64,000 nucleotides of DNA, taken from Thermoanaerobaculia bacterium. GTDB lineage: Bacteria > Acidobacteriota > Thermoanaerobaculia > Gp7-AA8. The stretch spans positions 6,238 through 70,237 of the forward strand of contig DATHRD010000081.1 of the NCBI GenBank assembly GCA_035482045.1, read 5' to 3'. Below the pieces are notes generated by a model, which was not told where the DNA came from, searched no databases, and saw nothing but the letters and a program-made list of their open reading frames with translations. The position numbers and the translations under genes are program-made. Shown piece by piece: positions 10,118-62,573 of this stretch (position 1 is the first letter of the stretch; each line of letters opens with the position of its first letter).

Positions 10118-10365
10118 GTCGCGGGGTTGCGGGTTGCGGGGTTACGGGTTACGGGGTCTCGCGGTGGAGAGGCTACCTGCTATGAAGGGAGGACCGCACA
10201 GACAAGAGTGTCTGTGCCCGCACAGACAAGAGTGTCTGTGCCACATCGAAGCCGCAGTGTGGCCTAGACACTCTGTCCGTTCCACAGCGGTTCCAGTGTG
10301 GCACAGACACTCTGTCCGTTCCACAGCGCGGTTCCAATGTGGCACAGACACTCTTGTCTGTGCTC
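10118..10365. repeat. Composite intergenic repeat region: tandem GGGTTGC heptads, 2 x 24-bp palindrome GCACAGACAAGAGTGTCTGTGC, and 3 x approx. 42-bp direct repeats
   Basis: Read directly from the sequence; lies between the peptidase gene's 3' end and the aminotransferase operon's 5' end. Confidence 0.8.
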
Positions 10366-10367
10366 CT

Positions 10368-11429
10368 CTACGACCGGCAGCTCGTCTGCGCCTCGGCCAT
10401 GGCCTTCTCCAGATCGCCGCGCGCGCTCGTGCGCGATTGCGGCACGGCCTCGATTGCGGCACGGAATGTCGTCAGCGCTTCATCGCACGCGCCTTTCGCT
10501 GCCAGCACGCGGGCCAGCGTATCAAGGACCAGGTACGAATCGGATCCGTGCTGGGCCACGGCTTTTCTCGCCAGTGACTCGGCCTCGTCGTAACGCTTCG
10601 ACTCGTAGAGAAGCCAGGCCAGATTGTTGAGGGCATCGCGGGACGTGGGATCGAGTGCGAGCGCTTTGCGGAAGGCATCCTCGGCCTCGGCGCGATGGCC
10701 GAGCAGCGTCTCCGCATTGCCGAGGTTTGTCCAGGTCAGAAGAGAGTCAGGATGATGGGAGAGGATCGCGCGATAGGCGTGTGCGGCATCGCCGTACTTG
10801 CCGGCATCCTCGAGGGCCACCGCGGAGCGTAGCGCGGCAGAATCATCGGCCGGATGGATCAGAATCGCCGCGTGGCCGCCGCCTGACCAGGCGTTTTCCA
10901 GCCGGCCGAACGTCGTCCAGCGTCCTTTGCCGTCGCCGAACTGCGTGCGCACGAGACCGGCCGCCGGATCGATTCCGTCCACGACGACGTAGTGGAAAAA
11001 GTCGTATTGGTGGCCGGGCCCATTCACTACCTGCAGCATCAGGATCACCGGCTGTCCCTGCCGCAACTCCCCTTCCACGATGGCCGGAGTCCCGGTGACG
11101 AGCTGCGCGTCGAAGCCCGCCTTGCGTGCCGCGATCAGCAGATCGATCGTGAGCACGCCACCGTGAGTCTTCGGCAGCGTCGCATCCCACGTCTGCATCG
11201 TCGTGGTGTCACCGTAGTGTTGCAGGACGGTCGAGAGCGATCCCGCGCCGCATGACTCGATGCCCCAGCGCTGCTCCGGAACGTTCGGGATTACCGTTGC
11301 AGTGGGGGAGGGGTGTTGGGTTCTGGGGGTGATGGTGATGCAGGAAGTGAGTGTCAGGAGGGCGCTGAGAAGAAGCTGAATGCCCGCGGGAGTCGGGAGT
11401 CGGGGGTCGGGGGTCGGAGCAGGAGCCAA
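10368..11429 (-). CDS. PA2778-like cysteine peptidase (C39-like) fused to TPR repeats, lipoprotein
   Basis: LLSALLTLTSC lipobox; papain/C39-like core (Cys in GIESCGAGS, His in GPGHQYDFFHYVVV); C-terminal TPRs. The ORF's first approx. 50 codons run through a hairpin repeat, so the TTG at 11429 is proposed as the start. Confidence 0.6.
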   Translation of the reverse strand: MAPAPTPDPRLPTPAGIQLLLSALLTLTSCITITPRTQHPSPTATVIPNVPEQRWGIESCGAGSLSTVLQHYGDTTTMQTWDATLPKTHGGVLTIDLLIAARKAGFDAQLVTGTPAIVEGELRQGQPVILMLQVVNGPGHQYDFFHYVVVDGIDPAAGLVRTQFGDGKGRWTTFGRLENAWSGGGHAAILIHPADDSAALRSAVALEDAGKYGDAAHAYRAILSHHPDSLLTWTNLGNAETLLGHRAEAEDAFRKALALDPTSRDALNNLAWLLYESKRYDEAESLARKAVAQHGSDSYLVLDTLARVLAAKGACDEALTTFRAAIEAVPQSRTSARGDLEKAMAEAQTSCRS

Positions 11430-11571
11430 GACGTTCTCTCCGACACCCGACACCCGACCCCCGACTCCCGAAGCACGAATGTTGACTGTTGACGGGAGCC
11501 GGGAGTGGGGAGTTGGAGCTGTAACGATCTCTCCGACCCCCGACCCCCGACCCCCGACTCCCGTCCTCAAC
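11387..11571. repeat. Two adjacent tandem-repeat hairpins, GGGAGTC/GGGGGTC arrays facing GACCCCC/GACTCCC arrays
   Basis: Inverted arrays seen directly; overlaps the 5' end of the peptidase ORF. Confidence 0.8.
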
Positions 11572-11577
11572 ATCAAA

Positions 11578-11940
11578 TCAACCCAAAGCGATGACGAGAA
11601 TCAACGCGGCCAGTGCGCCGATGCCGATCCAGATCCACTCCTGGCGCGTCACTCCCGCAGCCTGTACCTGGTCGATGTTCTGTGCGAGCTGGTGAAGGTC
11701 CTGTGGCGAGAGCTGCGCAAGGCGCTGGTCGACCTGCTCTTTGGTGAAGCCGCGGTCCGTCAGAACCTTGGCAACCTGCTCGTTCGCGGCCACATCGCGC
11801 ACCAGCGCCAGATCGGCTGTGCGCTGGTCGATGCTCTGATCGGCCGCGGTCTTCGACGGGACGGGACCGGCGAACGCGGGAATGGCCGCAAACGCGAGAA
11901 CCACCAGCAAAGCGACGAATTGAGACAAACGCTTGGACAC
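11578..11940 (-). CDS. PA2779-like small secreted/membrane protein (partner of the PA2778-like peptidase)
   Basis: GGGAGG RBS 8 nt upstream of the GTG; signal peptide SKRLSQFVALLVVLAFAAIPAFA; C-terminal TM helix; sits directly upstream of the peptidase on the same strand. Confidence 0.55.
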   Translation of the reverse strand: MSKRLSQFVALLVVLAFAAIPAFAGPVPSKTAADQSIDQRTADLALVRDVAANEQVAKVLTDRGFTKEQVDQRLAQLSPQDLHQLAQNIDQVQAAGVTRQEWIWIGIGALAALILVIALG

Positions 11941-12051
11941 GACAAGTACCTCCCTATTGTTGTGTGACGTGGCCTTGACCACCTCACCGTTCAGTAATCC
12001 CCGCGCTCATGGCCCCACGGCCACTGCGACGGTATCCGGGGAGCGACGGAG

Positions 12052-60676: not shown

Positions 60677-61482
60677 TGGAAGTTCCAGTCGTGCAGGATG
60701 AGGAACCAGTACGCATACAGGATCGGCGTCGTGTAGAAAACGGAATCAAATCGGTCGAGGAATCCTCCGTGACCGGGGAGAAGCGTTCCGGAGTCTTTCA
60801 CCTCCGCGGATCGCTTCCACATCGATTCGGCGAGATCGCCGATCACTCCCGCCAGCGGGAGGATCACGCCGGCGATGACGGCGTGGACCAGCGGAAAGCT
60901 CCTGAAGAACGTGAAATGGATGATGACGGCGGCGGCGACCGAGGAGACCACGCCGCCGATCAGTCCCTCCACGGTCTTCTTCGGGCTGATGCGAGATGAG
61001 AGCTTGTGGCGGCCGAGGGTGCGGCCGAAGTAGTAGGCGCCGGTGTCGCCGAACCAGACCACGAGCAGGAGGAAGAAGACCAGCTTCGGGCCGTCGGGGA
61101 AGTCGTCGTGGAGGCGGATCAGCGATCCACCCAGCATGCCCACATAGAGCGTCGCCAGGACGGCGATGGCACTGGACGGCAGCGCTTCCTCGAGGTTGCG
61201 ATGGGAGACGACATACCAGCCTGGAATCAACAGCAACGCCACAAAGACGCCAAGCTCGACGGAGATCGGCTTGAGGATGAACGCGGCGATGATGAAGAGC
61301 ATCACCCCGATGCAGAGTGGAATCGGAAGGTGGTAGCCCTTTCGCGTGCCGAGATCGAGGAACTCGTAGAGCGCCAGCGCCGCCACGATCGTCATGGCCC
61401 CGTCGAAGACATAGGGATGAGCCCAGCCGATCATCCAGATGGCGAAGGGAGCGGCGACGACTGCGGTGATCTCACGCTTCAT
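60673..61482 (-). CDS. cdsA: Phosphatidate cytidylyltransferase
   Basis: CTP_transf_1 signature (SPKKTVEG...GHGGFLDRFDS); trimmed to the ATG at 61482, since the ORF upstream runs into the hairpin repeat. Confidence 0.8.
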   Translation of the reverse strand: MKREITAVVAAPFAIWMIGWAHPYVFDGAMTIVAALALYEFLDLGTRKGYHLPIPLCIGVMLFIIAAFILKPISVELGVFVALLLIPGWYVVSHRNLEEALPSSAIAVLATLYVGMLGGSLIRLHDDFPDGPKLVFFLLLVVWFGDTGAYYFGRTLGRHKLSSRISPKKTVEGLIGGVVSSVAAAVIIHFTFFRSFPLVHAVIAGVILPLAGVIGDLAESMWKRSAEVKDSGTLLPGHGGFLDRFDSVFYTTPILYAYWFLILHDWNFQ

Positions 61483-61484
61483 TG

Positions 61485-61600
61485 TTGAAAGGATGAAGGT
61501 GGAAGGATGAAGGATGAAGGATGAAGTCAGAAGGCGAGGCGAAGGCATGCATCCTTCCGCCTTCCGCCTTCATCCTTCTGCTTTCAGCCTTGATTTCCAT
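61485..61600. repeat. GGATGAA-family hairpin; right arm overlaps the last codons of uppS
   Basis: ggatgaaggtggaaggatgaaggatgaaggatgaag ... cttccgccttccgccttcatccttc. Confidence 0.8.
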
Positions 61601-62399
61601 CCGCCTCGATGAACATCTGTGCGTCGGACTCATCGACCGCGCCGTAGCGGCGCTCGCGCGACTGGAAGTCGATGATCGCTTCGAAGAGATCGCGGCGACG
61701 AAAATCGGGCCAGAGGACCTTCGTGACGTGGATCTCCGCGTAGGCGATCTGCCAGAGCAGGAAATTCGATACGCGCAGCTCGCCGCTGGTGCGGATGAGG
61801 AGATCGGGGTCATCGATGTTGGCGGTGTAGAGATGATCGGCGAAGAACTGCTCGTCGATCTGGGCGTCGCTCATCTCCCGCTCGCGCAGCACGGCCATGA
61901 TGCGGTTGACGGTATCGACGATCTCGGCGCGGCCACCGTAGTTGAGAGCGATCTGGAAGAGAAGGCCGCCGTTCCTGGCCGTCTGGTCCTCCGCGTACTT
62001 CAGCTCCCGCTGGACCGAGGGATCCAGTCCGTCGACGCGGCCGATGGCCGTGAAGCGGATGTTGTTCTCCATCAGCGTGGCCAGCTCTTTTCGCAGGTAC
62101 TCCTTGAGCAGCATCATGAGGGTGGCCACTTCGTAGCGGGGGCGCTTCCAGTTCTCGACGGAGAACGCGTAAAGGGTCATGACGCCGAGCTCGAGGCGGG
62201 CCGCGGTCTCCACGATCTCGCGCACCGAGGCGATGCCGGCGCGATGTCCCTCCACGCGCGGCAGGTTGCGCGCGCGGGCCCAGCGGCCGTTGCCGTCCAT
62301 GATCACGGCGATGTGCCGGGGCAGCCTCTTGAAGTCGACGCGGTCGAGGAGGGTTTCCTCGATCGAGCCCGGTTCAGCGAGTTTGCGCAGGTCGATCAT
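61584..62399 (-). CDS. uppS: Undecaprenyl pyrophosphate synthase
   Basis: HIAVIMDGNGRWA, RVSNFLLWQIAYAE cis-prenyltransferase signatures. Confidence 0.9.
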   Translation of the reverse strand: MIDLRKLAEPGSIEETLLDRVDFKRLPRHIAVIMDGNGRWARARNLPRVEGHRAGIASVREIVETAARLELGVMTLYAFSVENWKRPRYEVATLMMLLKEYLRKELATLMENNIRFTAIGRVDGLDPSVQRELKYAEDQTARNGGLLFQIALNYGGRAEIVDTVNRIMAVLREREMSDAQIDEQFFADHLYTANIDDPDLLIRTSGELRVSNFLLWQIAYAEIHVTKVLWPDFRRRDLFEAIIDFQSRERRYGAVDESDAQMFIEADGNQG

Positions 62400-62424
62400 G
62401 TGAACCGAGGGATGTTATCGCAAG

Positions 62425-62573
62425 ACCGCGCGCCTGCGGCGGCGTTGTCTGCGGCGCTTTCGCGCCGCGTTGTCGGTTATCGGTTAGGGTAGGACAAATC
62501 TAACTGACAACCGACAACCGACAACGCGCGAAGAGCAGACAACGCGGCAGGCGCAGACAACGCCGCGAAACGC
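62425..62573. repeat. GTTGTCG-family hairpin (GTTGTC array ... GACAAC array)
   Basis: ggcgttgtctgcggcgctttcgcgccgcgttgtcggttatcgg ... ctgacaaccgacaaccgacaacgcgcgaagagcagacaacgcggcaggcgcagacaacgccgcg. Confidence 0.8.

Follow-up and report, generated by a model that had tools for sequence, protein, structure and literature searches.

What builds a hairpin whose two arms are themselves tandem arrays of a short unit, and what keeps it in place between genes? The question is raised by a 64,000-nucleotide stretch of DNA from a Thermoanaerobaculia bacterium (GenBank assembly GCA_035482045.1, contig DATHRD010000081.1, positions 6,238 to 70,237; hereafter the window, with a GC content of 64%), in which the original prediction had counted about 20 pervasive intergenic palindromes, each made of an array of a short motif, a loop and the reverse-complement array. 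We find that these array palindromes are a lineage-wide feature and no assembly artefact. The explanation that we favour, and that we give an even chance of being right, is that they are REP/BIME-like extragenic hairpin repeats with microsatellite-like arrays of 7-nt, less often 8-nt, units, which would be made and remodelled at the DNA level.

A strict scan combining inverted repeats with periodicity (arms of at least 18 nt, complementarity of at least 75%, loop of at most 200 nt, both arms periodic at 5–12 nt) returned 13 array palindromes and 61 inverted repeats in the window, compared with no array palindrome and about 0.6 inverted repeats in ten third-order Markov simulations. A strict tandem-array detector found 24 arrays versus about 0.6 in such simulations. 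With relaxed settings the scan yielded 15 clusters; of the 28 intergenic regions that measure 60 nt or more, 15 hold an element, and four further elements (at 21.6, 47.0, 55.8 and 10.12/10.2 kb) are visible by eye; the count of about 20 is therefore borne out by 15 clusters plus about four. The mirrored architecture, for which a formal inverted-repeat search had been proposed as a check, is confirmed by the strict and the relaxed scan alike. The same detector found no array palindrome in 50 kb of Escherichia coli K-12. A general inverted-repeat search of the window gave 67 pairs, the longest of which are nearly all made of short tandem units, and Tandem Repeats Finder (TRF) reported paired left and right arrays at the coordinates of the original prediction. 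Mirrored arrays stand at essentially all of its sites; a clear mirror is missing at 10.12 kb, and the element at 55.8 kb is degenerate. When ten elements were folded as RNA, z-scores lay between −3.2 and −8.6, and no shuffle out of 200 folded equally well. Rfam covariance models had no match at gathering score over the whole window, and a search of the window for tRNA and tmRNA found none. A CRISPR-like reading was rejected, as the arrays run head to tail without unique spacers.

Assemblers are known to have difficulty with palindromes and tandem repeats, and short-read metagenome assembly might have created such structures. We consider the probability of this to be negligible. A contig in the European Nucleotide Archive (ENA) that encodes a RelA/SpoT identical to that of the window matches positions 2271–19703 with one mismatch in 17,433 nt, six elements included. 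A relA-based scan of species-representative genomes gave 80 loci (1.3 Mb; loci and contigs are numbered with the prefix L), all from Thermoanaerobaculia/Acidobacteriota metagenome-assembled genomes (MAGs), with RelA identities of 67–94% and with single-contig chromosomes of 5.9 and 6.6 Mb among them. The architecture is present in about 60 of these independently assembled MAGs, the single-contig chromosomes included, and orthologous elements are common to several species; it follows that assembly did not produce it. Confinement to the window, which the original prediction had named as the mark of an artefact, is thus not what is observed. The detector found about 100 array palindromes with about 70 distinct unit sequences in the related 1.3 Mb. 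Their density per 10 kb is 2.0 in the window and 1.4 in six close relatives, but 0.09 in 74 unrelated bacterial loci (537 kb), which is about 15-fold lower. Several loci (L005, L035 and L064–L067) lack the elements altogether.

The anatomy of the elements follows narrow rules. Among about 300 intergenic arrays in the related loci, 209 have a period of 7 nt, followed by periods of 8 (48), 9 (16), 21 (11) and 6 (3); in arrays within coding DNA, multiples of three dominate. The short tandem units that had been predicted are real, but the predicted range of 6–11 nt is not, since nearly all units have 7 or 8 nt. Most intergenic arrays of 7–9-nt units have a mirror partner, an arm holds about five units on average, the median loop is 33 nt, mean arm complementarity is about 0.89 and the copy numbers of the two arms are correlated (rho 0.55). 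In 95 of 102 elements the 5′ arm contains more G than C (p ~8e-21; 38% G, 15% C). As a palindrome is identical when read on either strand, this polarity, in which the G-rich arm leads on whichever strand is read, is a genuine rule of configuration, and the phage-like contigs described below obey it as well. Arrays without a partner are G-rich on the sense strand in 20 cases and on the antisense strand in 20. Avoidance of Rho, a candidate cause of the polarity, is weakened by these orphan arrays, whose sense strand is equally often C-rich and G-rich.

Strict G-first polarity is a strand-symmetric property at the DNA level and as such would suit regulatory or structural sites in DNA, be they G-quadruplex (G4) or i-motif arrays, supercoil-absorbing cruciforms or binding arrays for a protein whose footprint is 7 nt, either a nucleoid protein or one that binds single strands. 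Four copies of GGGAGTC are predicted to meet the G3N4 quadruplex rule, GGGAATC arrays of Xanthomonas form G4 in vitro (PMC4692102), and in the case of CspB each heptamer is bound by one protein (noted in PMC4679880). Most families (TTGAATG, GGATGAA, AAACCAG, GTTGTCG, AGTGGATC) are however unable to form G4, and about 70 unit sequences argue against a single sequence-specific binding protein, which makes DNA sites of this kind a very improbable explanation.

How fast the elements change becomes apparent at orthologous sites, whose comparison had been suggested with the original prediction and indeed uncovers differences between species in both presence and unit. At the site upstream of relA (12.1 kb in the window), 31–34 of 71–77 species carry an array palindrome, built from over 25 different units; the flanks of L010 and L011 hardly differ there, yet GGGGAGT arrays in one contrast with GGGTGTC arrays in the other, and the loops are unrelated. 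At the 11.4-kb site, eight species have a TTGAATG palindrome with arms of 5/5.7 or 2/2.7 units, and since the loop is kept among L010–L012, both arms changed together. In L004 the centre of this TTGAATG palindrome is substituted by a GGGAGTC palindrome, and in the window two GGGAGTC palindromes are accompanied by TTGAATG remnants. At the 10.2-kb site, L006 and L008 differ by an identical A/G change in every unit of both arms (CGCGAAGA versus GCGGAGA), which points to concerted evolution; the L004 ortholog of the window's element is similar, L005 is empty (25 nt), and L006, L008 and L018 have other array palindromes. Palindromes also nest, and at 46.0 kb a composite has been duplicated in tandem. 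Overall, the sequence of the elements evolves far faster than adjoining non-coding DNA. A side observation concerns positions 5037–5607 of L004, where an intergenic region holds about 17 tandem copies of the 21-nt unit GAAGCACGCGAGGGTGAAAAC, with other repeats in its L002 counterpart.

The dxr operon shows the same turnover at the level of whole junctions. In the window, elements occupy truA–uppS, uppS–cdsA and dxr–rseP, and cdsA and dxr overlap by ATGA. In L087, whose Dxr is 94% identical, a palindrome exactly fills the cdsA–dxr junction, and the uppS–cdsA and dxr–rseP gaps are just 14–32 nt long (the contig ends short of truA–uppS). Palindromes of other units fill the cdsA–dxr junction in L083, L084 and L085. 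Some species therefore have an empty ATGA overlap and others a palindrome spanning the whole gap, and as these states do not follow Dxr identity, we infer recurrent gain.

With respect to genes, 93% of the elements in the related loci are intergenic. In co-directional gaps the median distance is 7.5 nt from the stop codon to the beginning of an element and 21.5 nt from its end to the following start codon; inside operons an element often fills the entire stop-to-start gap. Intergenic length minus the element is about the length of element-free regions, so that the elements look like additions to otherwise normal gaps. The orthologous site upstream of relA accounts, with about 30 species, for about 30 of 33 divergent cases and was left out of the comparison of region types, as divergent density otherwise looks equal. 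The elements then occupy 4 of 60 divergent, 45 of 279 tandem and 14 of 59 convergent regions, at densities of 0.23, 0.70 and 1.21 per kb, and divergent regions are depleted relative to the rest (Fisher's test, p 0.035). In the window, Pfam annotation places elements inside a bacterial microcompartment (BMC) operon, between tolQ and tolR, and at three junctions of truA–uppS–cdsA–dxr–rseP. The predicted locations past gene ends and inside operons thus stand, while divergent regions are represented by only one window element (12.1 kb).

Such positions raise the possibility of selected RNA elements, namely terminators without a U-tract, barriers to 3′-exonucleases or RNase III sites that would set relative expression within operons, with the structure selected and the sequence left to drift. 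Proximity to stop codons, a density that is highest in convergent and lowest in divergent regions, the very stable folds and an RNase III gene in the window (2675–3373) are all consistent with this, as is the finding that transcripts of Xanthomonas start or stop at comparable repeats above controls (PMC4692102). The termination variant, which the original prediction had put forward, is not supported by the data. No enrichment of U follows the hairpins (2.75 T per 10 nt on the sense versus 2.56 on the antisense strand), elements lie in conserved operons (tolQ–tolR, the BMC operon, uppS–cdsA–dxr–rseP) where termination would be harmful, and the occupied junction shifts between species as close as 94% in Dxr. 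The organism does use U-tract terminators, as evident from a canonical intrinsic terminator past rpsT (~51340–51385; GGCGCACTCCGGTGCGCC followed by TTTTCCTTT). At the 11.4-kb site in relatives, a canonical terminator coexists beside the element, and a conserved GGGCGAGC...GCTCGCCC hairpin adjoins the TTGAATG element in relatives (L002 ~9295–9320). The elements are not canonical terminators and are probably not efficient ones.

A second RNA-level argument had been that arm mismatches preserve G-U pairing on one strand. Mismatches between arms comprise 155 transitions and 181 transversions. In co-directional regions those compatible with wobble pairing number 45 on the sense and 27 on the antisense strand, a slight excess that is weak and phylogenetically non-independent, and the better-folding strand is the sense strand in 25 elements but the antisense strand in 20. 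The element at 19.5 kb, which had served as the example, has its wobble pairs on the antisense strand and folds to −67.5 on the sense versus −80.1 on the antisense strand. At best, these figures amount to a weak signal of selection at the RNA level. Orphan arrays without strand preference and evolution faster than that of neighbouring non-coding DNA argue in the same direction, and a bias to 3′ ends is also shown by selfish REP-like elements. A purely RNA-functional reading is disfavoured because of the missing U-tract, the operon-internal positions, the shifting occupied junction and the weak strand signal; we regard it as rather unlikely.

Remodelling at the DNA level, the account that we prefer, would proceed as follows. 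Arrays would grow, shrink and homogenise by replication slippage, with loops of 7–8 nt escaping mismatch repair, an idea that connects to a proposal linking 7-nt units to the polymerase (Mrazek 2007, as summarised in PMC4679880). Slippage accounts for the changes in copy number and for unit substitutions that are concerted, and it explains why periods other than multiples of three are excluded from genes. The two arms would be kept alike by template switching, an established mutational route between the arms of quasi-palindromes (PMC7202029), which, given the periodicity of the arms, could operate in any register. If the mirror arm is formed on the 3′ side of a G-rich array, the polarity would be explained as well, and some families may have spread to new sites by a putative copying process. 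Once transcribed, an element would fold to a 20–70-bp hairpin and so bring the upstream stop codon and the downstream start codon together again, leaving operon expression barely disturbed. Persistence inside operons becomes understandable through this juxtaposition, and protection of upstream 3′ ends and cleavage by RNase III would be likely side effects.

Several observations weigh against this account. Position-by-position mirroring of variant units was not significant in a permutation test (0.887 versus 0.878, p 0.32), so that copying from arm to arm is suggested rather than demonstrated; individual elements, among them the L033 copies described below and the 11.4-kb element, are nevertheless mirrored. 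Slippage and template switching do not alone explain the strong preference for 7 over 6 or 8, nor do they account for the cause of the G-first polarity. Unrelated sites and distant genomes share the families GGGNGTC, TTGAATG, GGTTGCNN and GCCGTTG, which the two processes likewise leave unexplained. Selection on RNA would equally fit the preference for 3′ ends and the wobble excess on the sense strand. As the polarity, the preference for 7, the recurring unit families and the dispersed copies lie beyond the model, they keep a mobile-element reading alive.

That reading takes the elements to be non-autonomous mobile elements, similar to REPINs or to MITEs (miniature inverted-repeat transposable elements), which would be copied by a trans-acting enzyme recognising the array hairpin, each unit family being a separate lineage. 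In its favour are two copies in L033, which lie 6.7 kb apart in unrelated flanks, are 90% identical and share the order of variant units with differing loops, and GCCGTTG elements of similar variant order at three different loci in L018, L032 and L083. The unrelated palindromes filling the cdsA–dxr junction, together with the GGGAGTC palindrome in the centre of the TTGAATG palindrome of L004, likewise speak for it. Against mobility stand the loops and ends, which family members within the window do not have in common, the similarity of only about 74–82% between most copies of a family, and the failure to find defined termini or a target motif. Target-site duplications are absent at the L033 copies and the cdsA–dxr insertions, a lack that would fit mobilisation of the HUH type. 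Pfam annotation revealed no transposase, REP-associated tyrosine transposase (RAYT) or insertion sequence (IS) in the window, and the RAYT-like gene that the original prediction had suggested looking for was not found by tblastn with E. coli RayT either, nothing scoring below E = 0.9 in 1.9 Mb of related sequence, a search of low power that covered less than 2% of any genome. On balance, mobility of this kind appears unlikely.

Palindromes of this architecture also occur outside the lineage. Scans of viral contigs in either polarity found no GGGAGTC palindromes but 41 TTGAATG arrays, many of which are palindromes of G-first polarity, situated in phage-like contigs of 44–54% GC and containing a 26-nt core that is conserved and may face either way; the conserved core adds to the case for mobility. 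The core, GCCTAACGGACTCAAGGGCGCTAGCC, is present in the IMG/VR contigs L174, L177, L180, L182, L183, L190 and L200 (GC 44–48%), each with several palindromes, and in L180, whose proteins are mostly unknown, TTGAATG palindromes fill the stop-to-start gaps at 1776–1905, 3081–3204 and 10649–10753. Similarity searches of one phage-like contig against plasmids and phages identified no host, and HIP1 counts gave no sign of a HIP1-rich cyanobacterium. In addition, a few unrelated metagenome contigs (Dxr 49–54% identical, GC 49–61%) contain array palindromes, at 656–761 and 1927–2013 in L096, 1635–1824 in L105, 10157–10235 in L134 and 1110–1191 in L118, with the unit GTTCTAA common to L105 and L134, which means that other lineages have such elements, too.

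A bolder proposal is that the elements are the product of an unrecognised DNA process, an enzyme or a property of the replisome, that builds and spreads hairpins of 7-nt units. The C-rich mirror arm would always be placed 3′ of the G-rich arm, and insertion would occur precisely at stop/start junctions and at the tips of existing hairpins, across phyla and phages. We think this improbable. Its breadth is suggested by the occurrence of TTGAATG in both Acidobacteriota and phage-like contigs and of GGGANTC in both Xanthomonas and Acidobacteriota. If true, the elements would constitute a new class of "array-armed" mobile hairpins and not passive microsatellites, and the mobilising activity, if it exists, would represent a new kind of very small mobile DNA.

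The individual elements of the window illustrate this variety. At 10121–10157, TRF and folding indicate a weak G-rich array of 7/8-nt units (GCGGGGTT / GGGTTAC) whose mirror partner is not clear, followed at 10194–10363, directly after the stop of minus-strand gene 10368, by a nested palindrome of 24/39-nt units (GCACAGACAAGAGTGTCTGTGC), which has no heptamer array but is a related hairpin. Two adjoining GGGAGTC/GGGGGTC palindromes with remnants of an older TTGAATG palindrome span 11387–11565 (arms at 11387–11419, 11438–11470, 11494–11517 and 11531–11563). The longest open reading frame (ORF) of the neighbouring gene (10368–11576, minus strand) reads through both palindromes, which gives it a low-complexity N-terminus before the lipoprotein signal peptide LLLSALLTLTSC; public gene calls take this long form, and relatives have a TTG start at the array edge. 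Between the divergent gene 11578–11982 (minus strand) and relA (plus strand) lies an octamer palindrome (12066–12252) composed of GGTYGCGA, then GGTTGCAA, and an inner GTTGTCG, with the mirror AGCAACCC/GCAACCGCGAGACC. Just beside it, at 12051–12064 on the minus strand, a sigma-54-type promoter-like motif, GGCACCCGTCTTGC (GGCAC-N5-TTGC), faces gene 11578–11982; it is the sole match in the window, where 0.59 would be expected by chance, and a relaxed form is kept at the equivalent place in 39 of 77 orthologous loci, with the array palindrome just upstream.

A short GGGAGT/GGGTGTC palindrome separates convergent genes at 16765–16839 (z −3.4). At 19508–19586 (z −7.4), 6 nt past the stop of a Kelch gene and upstream of the BMC operon, GGGAGTC x4.6 faces GACCCCC x4.9. 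The operon itself (19615–24931) encodes a RpiB–DeoC fusion, shell proteins with BMC domains, an aldehyde dehydrogenase and, in three genes, EutN/CcmL. Within it, a composite at 21516–21690 consists of a long AAACCAG array, an orphan CCGACTC x4.4 arm and a short CTGGTTT mirror arm, and past its last gene, in a convergent region, follows the octamer palindrome GGTCACGC/GGTCGCGC ... GAGACCGC/GCGACCGC (24937–25058). The palindrome of TTAGCTC x5 / AAGAGCT x3.9 at 33016–33124 overlaps the serS stop codon; the 11-mer GCGCACCAAGA at 33.07 kb, formerly taken for a palindrome arm, is in fact a direct array within its loop (33069–33103) that has no mirror copy. Long inverted repeats without array arms lie at 15652–15803 and 31606–31720, each between co-directional genes, one with 36-nt arms of 92% complementarity and an 80-nt loop, the other with 50-nt arms of 78%.

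A TTGAATG palindrome follows the stop of a Met-zincin gene by about 16 nt (35665–35780, z −6.7). The 529-nt convergent region further on contains a GGGAGTC palindrome 6 nt past the stop of an HTH/S24 gene (37316–37405, z −6.8) and, adjoining it at 37499–37772, 13 copies of the self-complementary 21-nt (3x7) unit AATTGCCTCCGGGAAGCAATC, which form one long hairpin of about 270 nt. Upstream of ftsK and 24 nt past a stop codon, an octamer palindrome of GGTTGCNN (40572–40691) has the lowest z-score (−8.6), and the ftsK–tetR gap is filled by a TTGAATG/TTCAATG palindrome (43313–43428, z −6.4) 15 nt past the stop and 11 nt before the start. The nested composite at 45957–46291 surrounds TTGAATG palindromes with outer GGGGAGT/ACTCCCC arrays, its tandem duplication having a period of 171 nt. 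The octamer palindrome GGTTGCGG AGTCGCGC GGTTACGC ... lies between tolQ and tolR (46961–47030, z −3.2). C-rich arrays of period 7, 14 and 15 (CCCACCC, CGTAGCTCCCACCCC) occur at 47707–47925 within a TolA/TonB-like ORF (47504–48274), where they appear to sit in a proline-rich linker, a case of array-type repeats inside coding sequence.

Between two minus-strand genes, a palindrome of GGGAGTC/GGGAATC/GGGTGTC (53030–53111) has a degenerate right arm, and directly past the ADH stop codon, before pfk, a degenerate GGTTACTS/GGTTGCTN array has a weak mirror arm (55772–55870). The dxr–rseP gap contains a palindrome of AGTGGATC (59429–59514, z −6.4), an 8/16-mer and not the 11-mer originally assigned to 59.45 kb. 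In the uppS–cdsA gap, a GGATGAA palindrome (61489–61594, z −5.2) extends over the final 8 nt of uppS, its stop codon among them, as had been predicted for the 3′ codons of this gene, and a GTTGTCG palindrome with outer GC-rich stems fills the truA–uppS gap (62440–62573, z −5.1).

In practical terms, elements that fill about half of the sizeable intergenic regions in a widespread uncultured soil lineage affect gene calling, because ORFs run through the stop-free arrays, and they may also affect assembly and operon prediction. In biological terms, the system is a natural experiment on the preference of long bacterial microsatellites for 7-nt units and on how palindromes stay tolerated and symmetrical. 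Concrete rules that lend themselves to testing are the strict G-first polarity, the nesting and the way in which whole hairpins are inserted between stop and start codons that used to overlap.

Hairpin terminators poor in U, termed "I-shaped", have been reported from high-GC Actinobacteria. Like intrinsic terminators, the array palindromes are GC-rich hairpins a few nt past the stop codon; unlike them, they have stems of 20–70 bp instead of 5–14 bp, lack a U-tract, occupy sites inside essential operons and are not conserved in position between species. From MITEs, which are characterised by terminal inverted repeats, target-site duplication and a related autonomous IS, they differ by the lack of duplication at L033 and cdsA–dxr and of any IS in the window.

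Cyanobacterial heptamer repeats (STRR) were reportedly described by Mazel in 1990, and in 2008 Elhai is said to have described small dispersed repeats embedded in such arrays. The short conserved core in the phage-like contigs L174–L200 resembles these embedded repeats, whereas the loops in the window have no conserved core. TAACTGA heptamer repeats occur in Beggiatoaceae and Cyanobacteria (PMC4679880). STRR and TAACTGA repeats are likewise intergenic tandem heptamers, and a given unit is common to distant phyla, but they are mostly direct arrays with few inverted pairs, and TAACTGA repeats lie upstream of start codons.

In genomic ecology, REP, BIME and REPIN elements are closest. These abundant extragenic imperfect palindromes of Enterobacteria and Pseudomonas are associated with RAYT transposases (PMC3116915, PMC3333891). 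As predicted, the array palindromes share their logic, being extragenic, abundant hairpins past gene ends and within operons: they reach high copy (15 of 28 regions), occupy 3′ UTR and intercistronic sites, avoid promoters, have the hairpin doublet as the evolving unit, with several families possible per genome, and produce paralogous copies of whole hairpins, as in L033. The mRNA-stabilising roles proposed for REP offer a further parallel. However, a REP arm is a single conserved sequence of 20–40 nt with a GTAG/CGTC tag, whereas the arms described here consist of variable units in tandem; within one genome REP sequences stay conserved, but the array palindromes are hypervariable and have no conserved end or loop among family members. 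RAYT, the hallmark of REP, was not found in the sequence searched, namely the window and the 1.9 Mb of related DNA.

The closest precedent is provided by the convergent inverted GGGAATC heptamer arrays (consensus GGGANTN) of Xanthomonas campestris and X. citri (Rehm et al. 2015, PLoS One, PMC4692102), which, judged by sequence, appear to be the same kind of element. Each genome contains 70–75 pairs, which are always convergent, that is G-first, and capable of forming stem-loops; about 90% are intergenic with a strong bias to positions just past or overlapping the stop codon, 7–8% lie in divergent regions, and length and sequence differ between close species at a given intergenic region (PMC4692102). 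The array palindromes agree in their heptamer arrays (typically about four copies in Xanthomonas, about five per arm here, with GGGAGTC and GGGAATC among the units), in convergent G-first orientation, in their mostly intergenic location by stop codons with few in divergent regions, and in variability between species at orthologous sites. The original statement that no such class had been described is hence not correct for convergent heptamer pairs by stop codons, but holds for the many families, for nesting and for the polarity rule. In Xanthomonas there is in essence a single G-rich family, which has been studied for its quadruplex formation, in contrast to about 70 units here, most of which are unable to form G4 and which include octamers; the GGGANTN consensus fits only the GGGAGTC/GGGAATC/GGGGAGT family, but not TTGAATG, GGATGAA, AAACCAG, GTTGTCG or the octamers. 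Nesting, occupancy of whole gaps where stop and start codons once overlapped, and paralogous copies at dispersed sites are not reported for Xanthomonas. New here are therefore the phylum, Acidobacteriota, the large number of unit families, octamers among them, the nested palindromes, insertions that fill whole gaps at stop/start overlaps, and a quantified polarity rule.

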